A DNA stretch of 64,000 bases from Eledone cirrhosa (lineage: Eukaryota): the NCBI GenBank assembly GCA_964016885.1, contig OZ024747.1, positions 46,562,001-46,626,000 on the forward strand, written 5' to 3'. This document shows positions 9,466 through 64,000 of this stretch, piece after piece. Below the pieces are notes generated by a model. That model was not told where the DNA came from and searched no databases. It worked only from the letters and a program-made list of their open reading frames with translations. The position numbers and the translations under genes were made by a program. Position 1 is the first letter of the stretch. Every line of letters begins with the position of its first letter.

Positions 9466-12123
9466 CTATAAGTGGACCGCCAGGTTTGTGATTTTGGGGT
9501 ACCTTTCATGGATAGAAAAACCAAAAATTCGCCAAAACGCTTCGTTTGTACTTATGTACCGGGCCGACAGGTCCCGGTCGGACTGGAGGGCGAATGCGGC
9601 GGAATCGCAGCCCTTGTTGACGTACTTGCAAACATATTTAATCGATTTAACTGAGCTACAGAATTCCACATTAATGTGGGCTTGGAACGTCGAAGTGAGA
9701 AGTGGACAATAGGGGACCACCCATCGATTGTCGACTTGCTTGCCCCTTACAATGGAAGTAAAACCACCGTCTTCAGGCGACCGGCGCCTGTACAGGGGAT
9801 AGCCGTCGTGCCCTGTCTGGGTCTCTGAAACAAATTTCCTAGGGTACCTCTTACTACAGATCCCGTCTTTCTGACACGAATGGTTAGAACCTGGATAACA
9901 GGGTCCGTGTATCATGGAAGTCGTGATGACGTCGAAGAGTTCTTTGTCGGTGGCAGGGTTGGGGATCTCTGCGCAGATAAATTTGTCGATGTCGTTGGAG
10001 TTGATCTTGTTCTGCAGCCACAGTAACAGATGAATGTGAGGCAGGCCCCGTTTCTGCCATTCTACGGTGTACGTATGGCATCTAGCAGGGCCGAAGATGT
10101 TGGCTTTTGCACAACATGCCTTCATTTTCTGTATGTTCCTCTCGAAAGCCCTCGCTATGAGGTCAAGGCGGTGGTGGTATGACTGCCCTAGAAGGAGTTC
10201 TCGGGTGATCTCATCCGCTTTCGGGTTGCACGTGAAGGTGATGAAGAGGTCAGGACGGCCGTAGGCCCGCACGTAGGTCATGGAGTCCTGAGTCCTCTCG
10301 TGCATGTACCGAGGTCCTCCAGTGAAGGTAGAAGGCAGGATGCAGACCTTGCCAATGTTTCGGGGATCCCCGTCGTTGGTCAAGCCGTCTCGCAGGTGTA
10401 TGTAGCTTTCGCTACGCAGTTGCTGCTGGTGGGTTCGAATGAAGGCCAGTCGTTCTGACTCCATCTTTGCTGCCATATCCACCGCAAATTGGTTCACTAG
10501 GTCCTGCGATCTGTGCAAACTGTTGAAACAGTTTCTCCGAGTTATGAGTCGGTATGCGTAAAATTCCTTGCAGGACACGGTTTTGGCGGCAGCAACGGAG
10601 GGCTGGTTTGGCTGGCAGTGTGGAATCTTGAAGTGGTAGCCGTCCTCGCCGCGGGGGAAAAGTAGAGGGCATTGGAGGCTGTCGTAGGATCCGTGTGTTT
10701 CGCGTATTCTGTGGAGGCCAGTTGCACAGTTGGATATGACGATATCCCGGGGGTTGTGCTGGTCTCCGTGAAGGACGACTGCCACCTCGTTGCACGCGGG
10801 CGCGTTGAATCGACGGGCGTGTTCTCCGGATGGTCTTTTGTCGGCATCGATGACAATGTTGAAGTTAGGCAGGTCAGTAGTCTCCAAGGCGTACTTGAAG
10901 CTCTGCACGTAGCTGTTTTCGGAGTGTAACATTTGCTGCAGCGCAAGGAGGACGTCTCTGTCCAGGTTCTTTCTAGTGTCATCAGCTGGGATGACAGATG
11001 AGCGCATGTCAGCCTGCTTGTTGTAGTCAGCTATGAAGTAAATTTGCAGGAAGGCGGGTTGCGCTGACGGCGCAGGATGTAGAGGACCGACATAGTGGTA
11101 AACCTGGCCCTGAACCTTAAAGGTTGGCATCCACCCGCTTTCTCGGACAATTTTGGCCCCGAACGAAGTCATCTGGAAGGCGCAGTTGTATTTCCTTATG
11201 TTGCCAAGGAAGTTTGTTGACGTAGAGGTCTCTCCGCTAAGAAGTTCTCGCAAAGGTTCTGGAGGGGCCGCCAAAGGAGGAAGTGAAACCTTCCCATTAG
11301 AGCAGCACAGGCCAGGTGGTTCTCCGGGCCACTTCTCTGCACCACAGAATTGGCATATGACATCCATCCTGCTTAGTTGAATGTCCGTACGGTCGGAGTA
11401 TTTTACTGTTGGATCGTAGTTGAAAGCCTTCATAAGCCAAAATGACTCATGTGGACTCGTTGTTCCTCTGGTGGTGTCTCTTCGTGCGTTGTTTGTGTCC
11501 AACCGAGCACGGTGGGCTGTTTGATGTTCTGCGGCACGGGAGGCGGCGGTGGATACAGCGTTCTGGGACATTCGGATGGCTGTCTGTATCTCGGTCTGGG
11601 ATGCTCTGGCAGCTGCGGTGGAGGCGGAGTCCTTGAACCTTCGGATGGCTGTCTGTATCTCGGTCTGGGATGCTCTGGCAGCTGCCTTGGAGGCGGAGTC
11701 CTTGGACCTTCGGATGGCTGTCTCCTGGTCGGTTTCTGCGGCACGGGAAGCGGCGGTTGAAGCAGCGTTCTTTGACCGTCTGGTGGCTGTTTGCTGTTTA
11801 GTTTCGGAGGCCCTTGCAGCAGCAGTTGCAGCATTCCTAGCCCTACGAAGAGCTCTTTGGCTGTCACTCTCTGCTGCCCTAGAAGCGGCTGTTGCAACTG
11901 CATTCCGACAATTACAAATGGCACGATTCGAAGCGGTAACCGTAGATAGAGAGGCGCTGGGTTGGGCTGTGCTAGGGGTACTTAAGTTTGAAAGCGAAGT
12001 AACAAGGGTTTTTGGCCAAAAATGCAGTCCGGCATCCGTAGACTGCTCATTCAATCGCCTCTTTTTTGAAACAACAGACGATGTTTTCCTACGGCTAAGG
12101 GTACTATTTCTTTTCAGTGGCAT
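9466..12123 (-). pseudogene. Helitron RepHel, Rep (HUH endonuclease) portion, 885 aa
   Basis: Motif 1 PDLFITFTCNP, HUH motif VEWQKRGLPHIHLL, Y2 motif KYVCKYVNKG, zinc finger CQFC..CC; ends at a premature TAG with in-frame continuation NGQRVYF. Confidence 0.95.
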
Positions 12124-13286
12124 GGTTGCAATAGTACAGTAAACAATAAAGGGGAAGCAGGTTTAGAACAAAGGCGAAGGTGATAAGCAGTATTTTGGGC
12201 AAGGTAAAAAAAAGTGACAAATTGTTACAATTTTAAGCAAGAAAAAGTAAACAAAAAACGTACTGGGAATGGCAAAGTCCAAAAGCGAGGTCACAAAATG
12301 TAATGCAGTGAGAGTGAAGCACACGTCTACACAGTAGCCTAACCAAGTAGCAAGTGTAGCGTTTGAAAACCCAAGCTTTGCAGGCCACTCAAATCAACGA
12401 TAAGAGTCTGCAGAATATTTTGATAGCAGTCTTGCCAAAACAGAATAAAAGCTGCCACCTCCAGCCGTCCATGAAATTTTTTTTTTGATTCAAGGCGAAA
12501 ATTTGTCCACTTCTCAACCGAAAGAAAGCAAAAACTGACTCAACTGGTGCCAGGTGGTCAGAACTGGCAGGAACTGGTTTGTGTCACGTGAAGCTGTAAC
12601 TATAGCAACAGTGGTTCCCTCGGTCTCAAAGACCAAAGTAAGTGGAGAGGGGAAGGTAATGTTACTGTAACACCAACAACGTCTCTCTCTATATTCCTCG
12701 CTCAATAAAGAAGGGGGAGGGGGAAAGTAATGTTACTATAGCAACAGTGGTTCGCTCACTGACCAAAGTGGAGAGGGGAATGTAATATTTCTGTGACACC
12801 CAAAACTTCTCTCTCTATCTTCCTCTCTCTCTCTACAGAAGGGGGAAGGGGAAGGTAATGTTACTATAAGACCTGTTATTCCTGTCTCTCTATATACGAA
12901 GTGGAGATTCGACCTCGAGCTTCACTCTCGACCGAATTTCGAAATGATTCGAGCACGTCAACAAAATTTAGACTCTTTTCTACCCATATTAGCAAAAAAC
13001 CGGGTCAAAAAACTCAAAAGGAAAAATTTTTCACGCGTGCATAAAATGCAACCTCATCTCCCGATTTCACCCAAAATAGACAAAAAGGTGGATTGCGGAC
13101 CCCTGGGATGGGCTATCAAAAACCAAAGTAGCCTAAGCAATGTAAAGGGTCACGAGGAGTGATGTATGCAAATTTGAGCGAGATCGGGCGAGCGGTGTAG
13201 ACGCCAACCTCGAATAATGTAGCATCCACACACACACAGACAAACACACATCCTCTGTTTTATATATATAGATATATAAATATATC

Positions 13287-17582: not shown

Positions 17583-18190
17583 AATGGAAAAAATGAAATT
17601 TCATTTCTCACTCTTAGTACGGCTGATACTTAAATATAAGTATGTATACGTACATACATATATGTATACAGACGTACAGTAGTATGTATATACATACACA
17701 CATACACACACATATATATATATGCACGTATGGGTTTACCGAACATTTATTATAATGTTCGGTTTGTTTGTAAACAAACAACCCGAATTAAGCCGTACAG
17801 TGTTCGGCAACCATCGTCGCCCTTTTGTTCAACAGTGAAAAAGGAACGGTGAACTAGTTTCTAGCTTATTAACTGTCATCAGCACCGTATACCTTCCTGT
17901 CAGTCGATTAAACGTTTGAAAGTATATACTTTCCCTATGCATATTAACTAGAAACTAGTTCCTCGTTCCTTTGTCAGTGTTGAACAAAAGGGCAACGATG
18001 GTTGCCGAACACTGTACGGCTTAATTCGGGGTGTTTGTTTACAAACAAACCGAGCATTATAATAAATGTTCGGTAAACCCATACGTACATATATATATAT
18101 ATGTCTGTGTGTGTGCATGTGTGTATGTATATACATACTACTGTACGTCTGTATACATATATGTATGTACGTATACATACTTATATTTAT
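17583..18190. mobile_element. Family A HHR repeat as an inverted pair (junction 17947/17948)
   Basis: Left arm carries a full HHR at 17848-17886 (-); right arm starts at the GAAAC half; the arms differ by several substitutions. Confidence 0.85.
17848..17886 (-). ncRNA. Minimal type I hammerhead ribozyme (family A)
   Basis: ggtg CTGATGA cagttaataagcta GAAAC TA GTT cacc. Confidence 0.85.
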
Positions 18191-18810: not shown

Positions 18811-18871
18811 TATTTTATCTGATGAGGGCGTACCAAAATTTTGGTACCCTTGAAATATATTTAATAAAATA
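18811..18871 (+). ncRNA. Type I hammerhead ribozyme motif
   Basis: tattttat CTGATGA gggcgtaccaaaattttggtaccctt GAAAT atattta ataaaata; helices I and II pair. Confidence 0.75.
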
Positions 18872-28068: not shown

Positions 28069-28119
<51 letters not shown>

Positions 28120-28122
<3 letters not shown>

Positions 28123-28496
28123 AAAGAAAATTTTCGCTCTACATGGCTAAATACAATAAATGTAATCTGAGTTTTTCGAATATTAATAATATTAAGATTC
28201 GATTCGTTTGTAATTCGTTTGTAAAGCCTCAATTTTATAGCAAATCAGGCCTACCAGTCACTGTATTTTTGAAAATAGCATATATTTTCAATAGCTCTGA
28301 CAGTTTGGCAGGTGAATAGTGAGCTGTACTGATGAAGGGTGAAACCCAGAAACATTAGCGTCTGCAGTTCTGTTCACATGCCAACACAAGAGCAAGAATG
28401 AAGTGTTCATTCCACTGACATGGCTATAAAATTAAGACTTGTTCGCATAATTGCAAACGAATCAAATGTTATTAATATTCGAAAAACTCAGATTAC

Positions 28497-28501
<5 letters not shown>
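28120..28501. mobile_element. Family B HHR repeat with inverted arm; HHR at 28321-28370 (+)
   Basis: gagctgta CTGATGA agggtgaaaccca GAAAC attagc GTC tgcagttc; ~28157-28241 inverted at ~28422-28501. Confidence 0.85.
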
Positions 28502-28536
<35 letters not shown>

Positions 28537-28681: not shown

Positions 28682-28754
<73 letters not shown>

Positions 28755-28870
28755 TGAAACAAAATGAAAACGAAATTTCATTTCTCACTCTTAGTATGGC
28801 ACTTACTTAAATGTAAGTATGCATGTATACGTACATACATATATGTATACAGACGTACAGTAGCATGCAC

Positions 28871-28905
<35 letters not shown>

Positions 28906-29064
28906 TATACATATGCATACAGGTACACATACATATATGCACGTATCAGTTTAGCGGCGCTAACGTCGCTTTGTTCGTTTGTAAACAAACTGAACAGCCT
29001 GAATTTATGCCATACGGTGTTAAGGCAACCACGTCACCTTTTTGTTCAACACTGACACAGGAAC

Positions 29065-29103
29065 GATGTACTAGTTTCAAGCTTGTTAGCTATCATCAGC
29101 ACC
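29065..29103 (-). ncRNA. Minimal type I HHR (repeated at 29541-29579 and 30017-30055)
   Basis: ggtg CTGATGA tagctaacaagctt GAAAC TA GTA catc. Confidence 0.9.
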
Positions 29104-29346
29104 GTTTACCCATCTGCCAGATAGTTGAACGTTCGAAAGTATATACTTTCCTTATGAAAATTAACGGCTGAGCAGCCTAATTTGCATATTGAGTGAGTTA
29201 AATCGGTTAGGCATACCGAAAACGATAAATTGAAACAAAATGAAAACGAAATTTCATTTCTCACTCTTAGTATGGCACTTACTTAAATGTAAGTATGCAT
29301 GTATACGTACATACATATATGTATACAGACGTACAGTAGCATGCAC

Positions 29347-29381
<35 letters not shown>

Positions 29382-29822
29382 TATACATATGCATACAGGT
29401 ACACATACATATATGCACGTATCAGTTTAGCGGCGCTAACGTCGCTTTGTTCGTTTGTAAACAAACTGAACAGCCTGAATTTATGCCATACGGTGTTAAG
29501 GCAACCACGTCACCTTTTTGTTCAACACTGACACAGGAACGATGTACTAGTTTCAAGCTTGTTAGCTATCATCAGCACCGTTTACCCATCTGCCAGATAG
29601 TTGAACGTTCGAAAGTATATACTTTCCTTATGAAAATTAACGGCTGAGCAGCCTAATTTGCATATTGAGTGAGTTAAATCGGTTAGGCATACCGAAAACG
29701 ATAAATTGAAACAAAATGAAAACGAAATTTCATTTCTCACTCTTAGTATGGCACTTACTTAAATGTAAGTATGCATGTATACGTACATACATATATGTAT
29801 ACAGACGTACAGTAGCATGCAC

Positions 29823-29857
<35 letters not shown>

Positions 29858-30298
29858 TATACATATGCATACAGGTACACATACATATATGCACGTATCA
29901 GTTTAGCGGCGCTAACGTCGCTTTGTTCGTTTGTAAACAAACTGAACAGCCTGAATTTATGCCATACGGTGTTAAGGCAACCACGTCACCTTTTTGTTCA
30001 ACACTGACACAGGAACGATGTACTAGTTTCAAGCTTGTTAGCTATCATCAGCACCGTTTACCCATCTGCCAGATAGTTGAACGTTCGAAAGTATATACTT
30101 TCCTTATGAAAATTAACGGCTGAGCAGCCTAATTTGCATATTGAGTGAGTTAAATCGGTTAGGCATACCGAAAACGATAAATTGAAACAAAATGAAAACG
30201 AAATTTCATTTCTCACTCTTAGTATGGCACTTACTTAAATGTAAGTATGCATGTATACGTACATACATATATGTATACAGACGTACAGTAGCATGCAC

Positions 30299-30333
<35 letters not shown>

Positions 30334-30603
30334 TATACATATGCATACAGGTACACATACATATATGCACGTATCAGTTTAGCGGCGCTAACGTCGCTTT
30401 GTTCGTTTGTAAACAAACTGAACAGCCTGAATTTATGCCATACGGTGTTAAGGCAACCACGTCACAAAAAGGTGACGTGGTTGCCTTAACACCGTATGGC
30501 ATAAATTCAGGCTGTTCAGTTTGTTTACAAACGAACAAAGCGACGTTAGCGCCGCTAAACTGATACGTGCATATATGTATGTGTACCTGTATGCATATGT
30601 ATA

Positions 30604-30638
<35 letters not shown>

Positions 30639-30881
30639 GTGCATGCTACTGTACGTCTGTATACATATATGTATGTACGTATACATGCATACTTACATTT
30701 AAGTAAGTGCCATACTAAGAGTGAGAAATGAAATTTCGTTTTCATTTTGTTTCAATTTATCGTTTTCGGTATGCCTAACCGATTTAACTCACTCAATATG
30801 CAAATTAGGCTGCTCAGCCGTTAATTTTCATAAGGAAAGTATATACTTTCGAACGTTCAACTATCTGGCAGATGGGTAAAC

Positions 30882-30920
30882 GGTGCTGATGATAGCTAAC
30901 AAGCTTGAAACTAGTACATC
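30882..30920 (+). ncRNA. Minimal type I HHR (repeated at 31358-31396); predicted cleavage after 30916
   Basis: ggtg CTGATGA tagctaacaagctt GAAAC TA GTA catc. Confidence 0.9.
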
Positions 30921-31079
30921 GTTCCTGTGTCAGTGTTGAACAAAAAGGTGACGTGGTTGCCTTAACACCGTATGGCATAAATTCAGGCTGTTCAGTTTGT
31001 TTACAAACGAACAAAGCGACGTTAGCGCCGCTAAACTGATACGTGCATATATGTATGTGTACCTGTATGCATATGTATA

Positions 31080-31114
<35 letters not shown>

Positions 31115-31555
31115 GTGCATGCTACTGTACGTCTGTATACATATATGTATGTACGTATACATGCATACTTACATTTAAGTAAGTGCCATACTAAGAGTGA
31201 GAAATGAAATTTCGTTTTCATTTTGTTTCAATTTATCGTTTTCGGTATGCCTAACCGATTTAACTCACTCAATATGCAAATTAGGCTGCTCAGCCGTTAA
31301 TTTTCATAAGGAAAGTATATACTTTCGAACGTTCAACTATCTGGCAGATGGGTAAACGGTGCTGATGATAGCTAACAAGCTTGAAACTAGTACATCGTTC
31401 CTGTGTCAGTGTTGAACAAAAAGGTGACGTGGTTGCCTTAACACCGTATGGCATAAATTCAGGCTGTTCAGTTTGTTTACAAACGAACAAAGCGACGTTA
31501 GCGCCGCTAAACTGATACGTGCATATATGTATGTGTACCTGTATGCATATGTATA

Positions 31556-31590
<35 letters not shown>

Positions 31591-31806
31591 GTGCATGCTA
31601 CTGTACGTCTGTATACATATATGTATGTACGTATACATGCATACTTATATATATATATATAAGATCAAAAGATGGTTAAAAGAGTTCCACGTATTTTAAC
31701 CATCTTTTGATCTTATATATTATGTATACTCCAGTCCTACAAACTGTAGAGTGCTTCTTATCCGATATCTGCATTGCTTTATTGTACTACAATAAAACTC
31801 ACCTCC

Positions 31807-34215: not shown

Positions 34216-36283
34216 TATAAACGTTTGTATTTGTAAAGCCAAAACAATGCAGGTATGGATATAGAATATAAATGCAAATGCAAAAGATATTGTTGACAAT
34301 TAGTCTTTTACCTTAAATTTATTTAAATATCCTTAATTTTCGAGATAATATCTCTTCTTCGGAGGGAAGTAATGTTGTTAAACCAGCGTTCTAAATAGCT
34401 TGCCAAGTCATGCTGACAGGAAATGGTATAGAGAATCTGTTCTATCTCTAATGTCAAAGAGCGAAGGTTAGGTGGATAAAGCGTAGTCTCCATTTAAAAG
34501 GGGTTTTGTACATGTATGTTTAAGTGTGTGGGAGAATATGTGAAGGTGTAAGTATGTGTGTGTGTGTGTGTGTGTGCGTGTGAGAAGATATTTCTATACG
34601 TGAATTTGGGGGATAGATGCTCTATCGTGTTAAAAGTGGTCTTTGTGTGTGTGTGAGAGAGAATAAGTGGAGGTGTAAGCGAGTGTGTGTGTGTGTGTGT
34701 GTGCGAGGGGAGGGTGTAAGTATGGGGCTAGGTGCTCTATCAAGTTATAAATTGGGTGTTGAGTTCTAGTCTATTATTGATTGGTGGTTGTGTTTTGTCT
34801 ATAATCAGTGCTTCCTTAATTCTAAGATTGCCGAGGTTTCTTTCCTTAGTTTCTATCCTAACTGTTATGTTTTTGTCGGTGTTTTTGCATTTGACTAGGT
34901 ATTTCTTAAATGAAGAAGCGTTAGTATTGAGGTGTTCTTTTATTCTTATGTGAAGAGGTCTGGTGGGGCTACCTAGGTATAAGTTGCTGCATTTGTCGCA
35001 CTCTAATCTGTATACGACGTAAGCCTGGTGGCATAGGTCTGTGTTGATGGGGCAGTTCGCTAGCCTGCAGCGGCTGTCATGTCTGGTGGAGTGTCTTTTG
35101 GTTAGCCGTCCGCGTAGAGAAGGTCCTGAGTGGGCCAGTTGGATATCTAGTCCCTCTCGTCTGATAGCTCTACGGATGGCTGTTGTTGTTTCCTCACTGA
35201 AGTGTGGGAGCTTCAGGAAGCAAGTGTAAGTGCCTCGGGTGTGGTGTCCTCTGTTCTGTCTGGCACGGATCGTGGTGGACGTCGGGTAACCGTTCAGTTT
35301 GAGTACTTCCAGGAAATGTGTGGTGTGTGTGTCTCGGTCTCTTGCGTCGGTGCATTTGTTCTGGATACGTGTAGTTCGTTTCTTATGTATCCGAACTTAA
35401 CGCCGGCTGGGAGGGCCGATCTGAAATGTACGAACAGGTCACTGCTGGCGGCTTTTTTATAGAAGCGGGTGTGGATGTTGCCTTCCTCTGTTACCCTGAT
35501 TTGGATGTCCAGTATGGATAGGGATCCGTGGTCATTGGGGTGTTCCATGCTGAACTTTATACTGGCGTCCATGCTGGAGAATGTCGTGTATATTTTATCC
35601 GCCTCCTCACGGGATGATGTAAGGATGAGTATGTCATCTACATATCGGGTGAAGAAGGTATGGGAATGGCAGGTGTTGACGGGTCGGCATTCTAGCTGGT
35701 TCATATAGGTGATGGCCAGCAGGCCCGATAGGCTGGATCCCATAGGTAATCCTGTTGTCTGTCTGTATGTGTGGTGGTGGAAGGTGAAGTACGTGTTGTC
35801 CACTGTGAAGGACAAAAGCTGGTGTATGTCCGTCGGATGGAGGCCGTAGCAGTGGATGTCCTTTGCAAACTCGCAGTCCGTCAATAAATCGACAGCTGGA
35901 TGAGCGGGGACTGTAGTGTAGAGGGAGACAACATCGGGGCTAAAGGCGTATCTATTTAGTTTAAGTTGTCCTGGTTGGAGTTGGTGTAGTCTACGTATGA
36001 CTTCGTCGGTGCTACTGACATGCCCGGGAAAGGTGGAGTGTAGAGGCTTGAGGACCTGGGAGAGGAGCCAGGGAATTTTGTATAGGGGTCCTTCTATGCT
36101 AGAGACGATGGGTCTTATTTGCGTCTTAGTACTAAATAAATTTAAGGTAAAAGACTAATTGTCAACAATATATTTTGCATTTGCATTTATATTCTATATC
36201 CATACCTGCATTGTTTTGGCTTTACAAATACAAACGTTTATACCTCATTACACAATGCTTCAAGTGAAGTATAACTTCCTCCT
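34216..36283 (-). mobile_element. Penelope-like retroelement, 5'-truncated, with inverted pLTR at 36133-36283
   Basis: RT motifs YRQTTGLPMGSSLSG and RYVDD (35294-35884), RPIVSS upstream; [35 protein letters not shown] (~34740-35030); pLTR HHR at 34331-34366. Confidence 0.92.
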
Positions 36284-37613: not shown

Positions 37614-39465
<1,852 letters not shown>

Positions 39466-39526
39466 GTATATATATATATATATATATATATCTGTATCTA
39501 TCTATCTCTATATATATGTATGTATA

Positions 39527-40342
39527 TACTACGTAGGTAGCACCACCAGACCACTCCACATAAGAATAAAAGAACACCTCAATACTAACGCTTCCTCATT
39601 TAAGAAACACCTAGTTAAATGCAAAAACACTGATAAAAACATAACAGTTAGGATAGAAACTAAAGAAAGAAACCTCGGTAATCTTAGAATCAAGGAAGCA
39701 CTCATTATAGATAGAACACATCCACCAATCAATAATAGACTAGAGCTCAACACCCAATTTATAACCTGATAGGGCCTCTAGCCCACTTTACACACCCCAC
39801 ACACACGCACGCACACACCTCCACTTATTCTCTCTCACACATACACACACAAAACCAGTTCTAACACCAGATAACACCTACCCCCCACTTTTACGATTAG
39901 ACCTATCTTCCCACACTCACACACACACATACCTACACCTTCATGCTTTCTCACACACACATATACAGGCACGCATATATAATTTAAAAAACACAACAAA
40001 AACATAAACAAACCCCTCTTAAAGGGAGACTACTCTTTACCCACCTAATTTTAATTCTTTGATATTAAAGTTAGAACTCTATACTATTTCCGGTCAGCAT
40101 GGCTTCATTGGAAATTTAAGACGCTGGTCTGAGACTTTTACTTCCCTCCGAAGAAGAGATATTATCTCGAAAATTAAGGACATTTAAATAAATTCAAGGT
40201 GAAAGACGAATTCTCATCAATATCTCTCACTATTGCATTCTTTTTTCTATGTCCATACCTGCATTGTCTTGGCCTTATTACACATATTCTAACGTTTATA
40301 CCTCATTACACAATGCTTCAAGTGAACTATAACCTCCTCCCA
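39527..40342 (+). mobile_element. Penelope-like element 3' fragment (GIY-YIG end, UTR, pLTR with HHR at 40144-40179)
   Basis: [24 protein letters not shown]; same family as 34216-36283. Confidence 0.88.
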
Positions 40343-52943: not shown

Positions 52944-52994
<51 letters not shown>

Positions 52995-53001
<7 letters not shown>

Positions 53002-53932
53002 AAATTTCGCTCTCCATGGCTGAATACAATAAATGTAATTTAAGTTTTTCGAATATAAATAATAACATTCGATTCATTTACAATTATGCAAACAACCCTC
53101 AATTTTATAGTCAAGTCAGTAGAATGAACACTTCTTTCTTGCTCTTATGTTGGCATGAGAGCAGAACTGCAGACACTAATGTTTCTGGGTATCACCCTTC
53201 ATCAGTACAGCTCACTGTTCACCTGCCAAACTGTCAGGGCTAGTGACAATATATACTATTTTCAAAAATACACTGGGACTGATCGGCCTGATTTGCATAT
53301 TTTCAGACTGGCTGATCAGGCAGATCTGCATATTAGCAGATCCACTGATCAACAGGATTTGCATATCAGCAGACTGGCCAGTCAGTTTCCTGTATACGAG
53401 CGATAAATGGCCGGCTTTGCCAAATTCAAATAAAAGAGAAATTTTCGCTCTACATGGCTGAATACAGTAAATGTAATCTGAATTTTTCGAATATTAATAA
53501 TTGTTTCTACTTTAGGCACAAGGCCAGCAATTACCCAGTGCATTACTGGAATATTAATAATAACATTCGATTCGTTTGCAATTATGCAAACAAGCCTCAA
53601 TTTTATAGCCATGTCAGTAGAATGAACACTTCATTCTTCCTCTTATGTTGGCATGCGAACAGAACTGCAGTCACTAATGTTTCTGGTTATCACCCATCAT
53701 CAGTACATCTCACTGTTCACCTGCCAAACTGTCAGAGCTAGTGAAAATATATGGTATTTTCCAAAATACACAGGGAAGTTGGCAAAGCCGGCCCTTTATC
53801 ACTCGTATAGAGGAAACTGACTGGCCAGTCTGCTGATATGCAAATCCGGCTGATCAGTGGATCTGCTAATATGCAGATCTGACTGATCAGCCAGTCTGCT
53901 AATATGCAAATCAGGCCGATCAGTCACTGTGT
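52995..53932 (-). mobile_element. Family B retrozyme-like repeat: ~436-bp units in tandem, then an inverted segment (~53776-53932)
   Basis: HHRs at 53164-53213 (intact GTC) and 53662-53710 (GAC variant); a short SINE piece at ~53502-53549 between aatattaataat duplications. Confidence 0.85.
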
Positions 53933-53953
53933 ATTTATATGTATATATATATG

Positions 53954-54355: not shown

Positions 54356-54951
<596 letters not shown>

Positions 54952-63175: not shown

Positions 63176-63583
63176 TCGAGCTCAGCTCGTGTTCGGAACT
63201 CATCGCATGTAGATGTGGTAGGTATGTCGAGCTCAGCTCGTGTTCGGAACTCATCGCATGTGGATGTGGTAGGTATGTCGAGCTCAGCTCGTGTTCGGAA
63301 CTCATCGCATGTGGATGTGGTATGTATGTCGAGCTCAGCTCGTGTTCGGAACTCATCGCATGTGGATGTGGTAGGTATGTCGAGCTCAGCTCGTGTTCGG
63401 AACTCATCGCATGTGGATGTGGTAGGTATGTCGAGCTCAGCTCGTGTTCGGAACTCATCGCATGTGGATGTGGTAGGTATGTCGAGCTCAGCTCGTGTTC
63501 GGAACTCATCGCATGTGGATGTGGTAGGTATGCCGAGCTCAGCTCGTGTTCGGAACTCATCGCATGTGGATGTGGTAGGTATG
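63176..63583. repeat. 51-bp minisatellite, 8 copies
   Basis: tcgagctcagctcgtgttcggaactcatcgcatgtggatgtggtaggtatg repeated with about 3 substitutions. Confidence 0.95.
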
Positions 63584-64000
63584 ACATGCAAATACCTAGT
63601 GTGGAGAGAGCACTCAGCTTCGGATAGTGGAAGGTCAGAGGATATGATTACAAAGGTATGGGAGGTACGTGAGGGAGAGGAAATAGTGGTGACGGAGAAG
63701 CCGTGGTAGGTTAGTTATGTGTGTAGTGTGCAGAGTCAGTGGTGGTGGTGGTGGAGGGGGGGGGGGGGGGGGAGTTAAGGTGGCAGCGACGAGAGAATGA
63801 AACGAAGGCAATGGGATGATAGGGTTACGACTGTAGGTGAGGTGGCTGCTTATGTTAACAGTAGACAAGGAGCGGAGTGTGTCACGTTTTTACAGGTGAG
63901 AAAATTGAAGTGCATACATATATAGATGTATATACACACACACACACACATAAACACATACTTACACAGAAACACATACTCTCACATACACACACACACA

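Follow-up and report, generated by a model that had tools for sequence, protein, structure and literature searches.

A candidate snRNA-type promoter inside the monomers of hammerhead ribozyme repeats in Eledone cirrhosa

Two kinds of hammerhead repeat in the genome of Eledone cirrhosa carry the same short cassette upstream of the ribozyme: an octamer, a TATA box and a GGCAG word, at nearly the same distances from each other. Is this cassette a promoter, from which each monomer could drive its own transcription, and which class of host promoter does it resemble? The question arises from a stretch of 64,000 nucleotides (contig OZ024747.1, positions 46,562,001 to 46,626,000), called the window here, in which a first-pass annotation had read the cassette as an snRNA/U6-type promoter that each monomer carries and regenerates.

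Non-LTR retrozymes of metazoans have been defined, with Penelope-like elements proposed as their partners (PMC7229834, Cervera and de la Pena 2020), and a review assumes that they are transcribed by host read-through and holds that they do not appear to have promoters (PMC7761336). The promoter cases for hammerhead repeats that we located are two old reports, on newts and schistosomes: newt satellite 2, a hammerhead tandem repeat with an internal snRNA-type promoter reported for Pol II, and the schistosome hammerhead satellite, with a Pol III promoter (both as outlined in PMC2220036). A ribozyme repeat with its own snRNA-type promoter is already known from newts. The newt promoter, described by Coats, Zhang and Epstein in 1994, is said to consist of an octamer and a proximal sequence element. 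That of the schistosome satellite, attributed to Ferbeyre et al. in 1998, is reportedly of the tRNA-like A/B-box type. A search of the main texts of the open literature found no report of the present cassette or of cephalopod retrozyme promoters; the families may yet be listed in supplements among retrozymes or Penelope-like consensus sequences. What appears to be new is the hybrid layout described below, its spread over a group of families with more than 20,000 copies, and a junction-spanning layout in one further family. With that many copies, host genes as a built-in reference and young identical arrays, the question of retrozyme transcription becomes directly testable.

The cassette and its ribozyme monomers

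In family A, on the plus strand, the octamer ATGCAAAT (30798-30805) is followed after 34 nt by TATATA (30840-30845) and after a further 21 nt by GGCAG (30867-30871). In family B, on the minus strand, the octamer (53298-53291) is followed after 35 nt by TATATA (53255-53250) and after 22 nt by GGCAG (53227-53223). A foldable type I hammerhead motif lies downstream of each, with predicted cleavage after 30916 and 53172, respectively. Family B has a surplus octamer at 53364-53357 and a variant, ATGCAGAT, at 53331-53324. The first-pass annotation had given these coordinates and spacings for both cassettes, and the extra octamers of family B (53357 and the variant at 53324), all of which proved correct on re-reading. 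The family B octamers belong to three 33-bp units, each with an octamer (53291-53364, minus strand), and at least two extra octamer-like words occur upstream in 28 of 54 B matches. The TATATA is private to the window copy of B: among 34 distinct B copies, 29 show CATATATT at this place and one shows TATATATT.

The family A copies form a head-to-head array, with 3.6 identical 476-bp monomers in the left arm (28749-30465, minus strand) and 2.5 monomers in the right arm (30464-31653, plus strand); the 3' end of each arm runs into (TA)n. Around the right-arm cassette, an octamer block, TATGCAAATTAGGCTGCTC (30797-30815), resembles the upstream element of host U6, U6atac, MRP and tRNA-Sec genes, and a TCAGC word (30814-30818), 26 nt before the TATA box, is like the YCAGY of host Pol II snRNA genes (p 0.008, low score). 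By host spacing, transcription is predicted to start on the A of C|AG at 30870, which lies 30 nt beyond the first T of the TATA box. The type I motif of family A (30879-30923) has stem I at 30879-30885 paired with 30917-30923, the core at 30886-30916, and a short palindromic stem III; a distal extension of stem I, whose 5' strand (30855-30870) lies upstream of the predicted start, pairs with 30928-30941. A predicted 3' hairpin with T-runs, belonging to the preceding monomer, is found at 30725-30748 and again at 31201-31224 on the same strand (z -1.2, weak). A second plus-strand cassette with its hammerhead lies at 31273-31399, and the minus-strand copies have octamers at 30139, 29663 and 29187.

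The family B cassette with its type I motif (53164-53299, minus strand) is part of a partial tandem (52992-53790, minus strand), which has a second hammerhead-like core at 53703, a 3' end running into (TA)n and an inverted 5' piece at 53775-53936. A diverged family A copy with the cassette, A2, lies at 54504-54951 on the minus strand (octamer 54890-54883). Two inverted pairs are incomplete: a diverged family A copy at 17590-18189 is truncated 5' of the TATA box, and in a family B copy at 28116-28502 the inversion junction cuts the octamer. Hammerhead-like cores lacking the cassette occur in the window at 18819, 20193, 20302/20387, 22542, 32181, 47483 and 59299, several of them in inverted pairs. 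A 51-bp tandem repeat of eight copies (63176-63583) has an octamer directly after it, at 63586. The window also contains a Helitron-like frame (9469-12162, minus strand) and two reverse-transcriptase frames (35297-36154, minus strand, and 38637-39533, plus strand); Pfam assigned no family to 4 of the 7 frames scanned.

Rfam gave no match in the window at the gathering threshold. Family A matched Hammerhead_HH9 below it (E 0.032, 18.5 bits, gathering 52), and family B had no ribozyme match, even sub-threshold; the base of stem II is a U.U pair in A and an A.A pair in B. Each monomer nonetheless has the type I core and three stems. The monomers are short, tandem and dispersed in many copies, with neither coding frame nor LTR features, and no frame of at least 250 aa lies over the arrays. 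Two more families have the same cassette, C, discovered through its ribozyme, and E, discovered through its octamer. Families A, B, C and E form a related group of hammerhead repeats with the anatomy of non-LTR retrozymes. The first-pass annotation had treated A and B as independent families, a view that did not survive: E is intermediate, its promoter region being like that of A and its ribozyme like that of B, and the families have downstream blocks in common. The conserved islands within the group are the octamer, the TATA box and the ribozyme core.

As far as the cited sources describe them, metazoan non-LTR retrozymes are likewise short non-coding tandem repeats with a type I hammerhead and a weak stem III (PMC7229834; PMC7761336), and have high copy number and coexist with Penelope-like elements (PMC7229834). 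They differ in length, at about 170-400 nt against the 476 bp of family A (PMC7229834), whereas here, on the evidence of the sequence, the arrays are head-to-head palindromes in (TA)n. They differ also in being reported as seemingly without promoters (PMC7761336), while host-like promoter elements are present here in every full monomer. Penelope-like look-alikes do coexist with the present repeats, as assigned by frame likeness: of 98 random stretches, 14 contain RT/GIY-YIG frames of Penelope-like character, and Atlas look-alikes carry both the GIY-YIG and RT families. A test of the distances between hammerhead clusters and Penelope-like frames found no cluster enriched. The account of Penelope-like elements cited here (PMC8557442) describes tandem and inverted structure and microsatellite targets; the present repeats share with them the partial tandems, the inverted 5'-truncated copy, the microsatellite bias and, on the promoter reading, a promoter within the repeat, but, unlike them, have no coding frame.

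Abundance and conservation of the cassette

Could the cassette be a chance arrangement in AT-rich DNA, and the palindromic arrays an artefact of assembly? The two arms of the window array are 100% identical, the local DNA is TA-rich, and the 3.0-Gb assembly as a whole is rich in (TA)n. However, the 22-nt upstream half of the cassette, TATGCAAATNAGGCNNNTCAGY, has 21,605 exact matches in the genome and its reversed pattern none, a count that misses family C and decayed copies by using that half only. A script that demanded the hammerhead core with its three stems was run on 98 evenly spaced 10-kb stretches (980 kb). It returned 87 motifs in 17 clusters, 11 of the motifs from a single array; shuffled sequence gave 1. 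The same architecture recurs at many loci with differing centres, flanks and microsatellite variants. The locus diversity and the match counts refute the artefact reading as far as the tools go, and we hold it to be extremely improbable; the cassette is a real, non-chance arrangement. Extrapolated to the genome, the sample would correspond to roughly 270,000 hammerhead motifs.

Conservation across families was assessed in several ways. In an alignment of 90 distinct copies from the four families, all agree in 9 of 9 octamer columns, 5 of 6 TATA columns, 4 of 5 GGCAG columns and 7 of 7 columns of CTGATGA, while agreement in flanks, spacers and stems is 0.09-0.23. The octamer is the longest invariant run (9 columns, permutation P 0.0005), exceeding the catalytic CTGATGA. 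The copies were gathered by octamer match, which overstates this conservation, and the agreement is further inflated because family E was found via its octamer. Two checks are free of this bias. One is the ribozyme-first sample, in which an octamer with at most one mismatch lies 70-110 nt upstream in 14 of 17 A, B and C motifs and in 5 of 70 motifs of other clusters (Fisher p 1e-9, with copies that are not independent). The other is the distribution of variant sites among A copies: none of 18 falls in the 28 motif bases (p 0.026; positions 30770-30930, counting variants that reach a share of about 3%, in contigs from three runs of one sample). That the motifs might be no more conserved than neighbouring sequence, the objection raised at the outset, is thus not the case for the octamer, TATA and CTGATGA, all conserved above flanks and spacers. 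GGCAG is also part of the extended stem I of the ribozyme, so its conservation need not be a promoter signal. The cassette does not extend to all hammerhead families: only 3 of the 17 clusters have it, plus family E. Since the families share ancestry, their common match to host promoters counts as about one evolutionary event. An octamer-bearing repeat (L104, L117, L143) was set aside, as it has no ribozyme core in the 130 nt after the octamer.

Comparison with host snRNA promoters

The host reference came from loci for U6, U6atac, MRP, tRNA-Sec, U1, U2, U4, U5, U11 and U12, and further for U4atac, U3, RNase P and SRP, of which only distinct upstream sequences were kept (L001-L003, L173, L211, L213 and L214 versus L051-L058, L161-L163, L199-L205 and L251-L262). 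Near-duplicates in tandem arrays were dropped. The 20 U6 loci yielded three promoter types, after removal of six array members with replaced upstream sequence and two retroposed-looking copies; 5 of 6 U6atac loci and 6 of 8 tRNA-Sec loci were dropped as retrocopies or weak matches. U3, RNase P and SRP, whose class is uncertain, stayed outside the class counts. In these small, hand-picked sets the classes separate cleanly. Every one of the 7 Pol III type-3 promoters has the octamer (at most one mismatch) between -76 and -79, and none of the 20 Pol II snRNA promoters has it there. YCAGY stands between -55 and -58 in 16 of the 19 Pol II promoters that remain once a near-duplicate U4 is left out, and in none of the 7 Pol III promoters. 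All seven Pol III promoters have TATA at -30 or -31 and start at T|G; a TATA-like box is present in most promoters of both classes. A distal element (at most two mismatches) stands between -257 and -290 in 11 of the 19 Pol II promoters and in 4 of the 7 Pol III promoters.

The layout of the host genes can be described as follows. In Pol II snRNA genes, AATTAA stands near -90 and YCAGY near -57, followed in most of them by a TATA-like box at -30; Pol III genes have the octamer block at -77, and TTACYTCCCTT near -260 is possible in both. In U6 tandem-array members L007, L008 and L010-L013, the promoter upstream of TATA has given way to other sequence, which seems to be an abundant repeat. Within the L263-L268/L212 set, the U3 genes have no YCAGY and, as judged by eye, a word near -77 that differs from the octamer at 2 positions; their ends are T-rich. 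These features hint at transcription of host U3 by Pol III. The RNase P RNA gene has the Pol II-type word but no octamer. The host promoter consensus may serve for guide-RNA expression in this animal group.

The cassette shares features with both classes. On a 19-nt Pol III matrix, families A, C and E score 20.0, 22.6 and 19.3 bits, within the host leave-one-out range of 12.7-27.8, and B scores 10.3, below it. The 10 nt after the octamer, taken alone, match with p 0.003 in A, 0.0008 in C and 0.004 in E, but B fails (0.13). The octamer and TATA box thus recall host type-3 Pol III promoters (U6, U6atac, MRP, tRNA-Sec), but the cassette has neither their T|G start nor their spacing: the octamer-to-TATA distance is 41-43 vs 46-48, 3-7 nt closer, and the start is C|A. 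Its T4 runs differ as well from the mostly longer T-runs of the host genes. Two features come from the Pol II side. A, A2, B and E carry TCAGY at 26-27 nt ahead of TATA (p 0.001-0.008), and in all of A, B, C and E the TATA box is followed at 30-31 nt by C|A, as it is in host U1 and U4. The pairing of YCAGY about 26 nt before TATA with a purine start 30 nt after it, as in host Pol II genes, occurs in A, A2, B, E and also in D, a family described below, but not in C, which has no TCAGY word before TATA. Scores on the Pol II matrix are 1.5-5.8 bits vs 7.2-15.7 for the host genes, these being in-sample. By inspection, an octamer stands where the upstream AATTAA of host Pol II genes would be. No host distal element occurs at a host-like place in A, B, C or E.

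These results support a reading of the cassette as a hybrid that would combine a host Pol III-type octamer block with a Pol II-type TCAGY word and C|A start. The first-pass reading held in part: the match to a promoter stands, and the plain U6 type gives way to a mixture of two classes, since the spacing falls short of that in host Pol III genes and a word of Pol II type is also there. Given that its upstream elements match those of host snRNA gene promoters, each unit probably drives its own transcription. The host match and the conservation above neighbouring sequence together support the proposal of a promoter inside every monomer, and we consider it probable that the cassette works as an snRNA-type promoter in each monomer of these related retroelements. 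As to the polymerase, we lean modestly to Pol II because of the spacing and of an analogy with insects, in which, in the account cited, the 3' half of the proximal element sets polymerase choice (PMC1761439); the class-specific octamer block points to Pol III, to which we give the smaller though substantial share of our expectation, with use of both polymerases a minor prospect. Because the cassette splits host Pol II and Pol III determinants, it offers a natural test of what decides the polymerase in this lineage, whose promoters of either class have a TATA box. In vertebrates, the Pol II snRNA promoters lack one (PMC1761439). The putative promoter differs from that of newt satellite 2 in its TATA box and compact mix of Pol III and Pol II elements, and in its occurrence in an invertebrate and in several related families. 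It is like the schistosome hammerhead satellite in placing a promoter of its own, here predicted, beside a hammerhead repeat, and unlike it in that the polymerase there is reported as Pol III, whereas here it reads as a hybrid.

A second host-like arrangement is seen in family D (L121 2450-3381, minus strand; L275-L299), whose 310-bp hammerhead monomers have no octamer. They form head-to-head arrays of up to about 19 monomers per arm, near-identical across chromosomes. In D, CCAGT lies 27 nt before TATAAG (p 0.008), and an exact copy of the host distal element, TTACTTCCCTT, lies at -257 from the predicted start of the next monomer (chance P 0.0006 in a 35-nt window, a match noticed after the fact in a single family). 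This distal element is also the 3' strand of ribozyme stem I, and ribozyme constraints may lie behind part of the match. Tentatively, and with more doubt than belief, these retrozymes in general could be read as promoter-bearing circles with mosaics of permuted modules of the host's Pol III and Pol II snRNA promoters, complete only across the monomer junction; under that reading the 310-bp period of D puts the distal element at -257, and rolling-circle copying would therefore assemble the promoter.

The motifs might instead have been kept for another reason, such as RNA structure or a role in binding either a POU protein or the reverse transcriptase, or be an inherited relic, with the RNA coming from host read-through, as is reported of retrozymes generally. 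GGCAG and the spacer from TATA to the start do lie in a predicted RNA stem, the families share ancestry, the geometry of the cassette fits neither host class fully, and retrozymes seem to be without promoters as the review has it (PMC7761336). However, the longest invariant run is the octamer and not a ribozyme element, three separate elements stand at host promoter distances, B has triplicated its octamer unit, and D shows a second, different host-like set. We judge this explanation unlikely.

Transcript ends, RNA structure and the proposed cycle

If the cassette is a promoter, where do its transcripts end? The first-pass annotation had proposed that T-runs near the monomer end are Pol III terminators. 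The first sense-strand T4 near the 3' end lies at +346, +221, +275 and +294 in the four families, 3' ends of copies cluster around the predicted T-run hairpin (30725-30748), and 33 of 36 A-type 3' ends lie at +296 to +377; 3' ends inside the internal microsatellite are invisible to this count. With the octamer block specific to host Pol III genes, these positions would suit a plain type-3, U6-like promoter whose near-end T4 runs act as leaky terminators, read-through yielding the promoter-containing monomers. Host U6 genes terminate in 7-10 T, and therefore T4 could leak. However, the short octamer-to-TATA spacing and the C|A, where 7 of 7 host Pol III genes have T|G, speak against it, as does the need to pass four T4 runs in making a full A monomer. 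The bodies are T4-free, but no more so than chance allows (P 0.23-0.47 without the microsatellite), and D copies end at two fixed sites away from T4 runs. The terminator proposal accordingly found no backing in T4 depletion or in the D ends. Since D has fixed ends at sites that lack T4, reverse-transcriptase recognition together with short (TA)n homology accounts for the copy ends no less well than termination does. We regard the plain U6-like promoter as improbable; it is a variant of the promoter reading and its share is counted within the weight given to that reading.

The host 3' box was sought after the transcribed region, where 12 of 19 host genes have it, and was found in none of the four families, nor in D; a resemblance near the B end, noted by eye, failed the 3' box pattern. 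As there is no host-type 3' box, a polymerase starting at the cassette would read on through the next monomer.

The RNA folds bear on whether the RNA contains the promoter region. Folds were computed with the ribozyme core kept open. In four families (A, C, D and E), the sequence before the predicted start contributes 6-14 bases that pair on the 3' side of the cleavage site, and 0-2 of 300 spacer shuffles fold as well (2 in A). In B the pairing is absent from the lowest-energy fold, and 77 of 300 shuffles fold as well. Those bases would be missing from a transcript that starts at the cassette; the structured RNA is therefore likely to be a circle or a monomer made by read-through. Together with the array structure, the predicted pairing lends support to the idea that the promoter region forms part of the RNA.

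Under the preferred promoter reading, the following cycle may be proposed. Transcription would start near 30870, about 47 nt before the cleavage site. Two successive ribozymes would cut out a 476-nt unit with the promoter sequence inside; the ribozymes would probably act as dimers, given their short palindromic stem III. Ligation would turn the unit into a circle, and a Penelope-like reverse transcriptase, starting from a nick in (TA)n, would go round it several times. The product would be head-to-head tandem arrays, in which every complete monomer again has the promoter before its ribozyme.

The arrays themselves have features that relate to the copying step. Family A arrays identical over a 331-nt query occur elsewhere in the genome. 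Among six A arrays, three have their own substitutions in the internal microsatellite and the rest differ in its modal length; in the three where both arms were sampled, the variant is common to both. Some spread of length persists within A arrays. This homogeneity fits repeated copying of one monomer, and local amplification after insertion is also possible.

Two kinds of U6 retrocopy were seen among the 31 U6 ends examined. In L368 (= L014, G000:C10:48072670) and L383 (G000:C2:392823803), the terminal T-run continues directly into the sequence beyond a predicted cleavage site, that of another hammerhead family (window copies 20193 and 32181). Such joins occur at 2 of the 31 ends, with one exact match genome-wide, and no U6 copy was found joined to the predicted cut ends of A or of B. 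Ligation of U6 RNA to the product of ribozyme cleavage, followed by retroposition, may account for these joins and would be an indirect sign of cleavage in vivo. In 8 of the 31 (L369, L372, L374, L377, L393, L394, L396 and L398, among others), one recurrent repeat tail stands at the 3' end of the U6 retrocopy, suggesting that these fusions arose by template switching of another retroelement.
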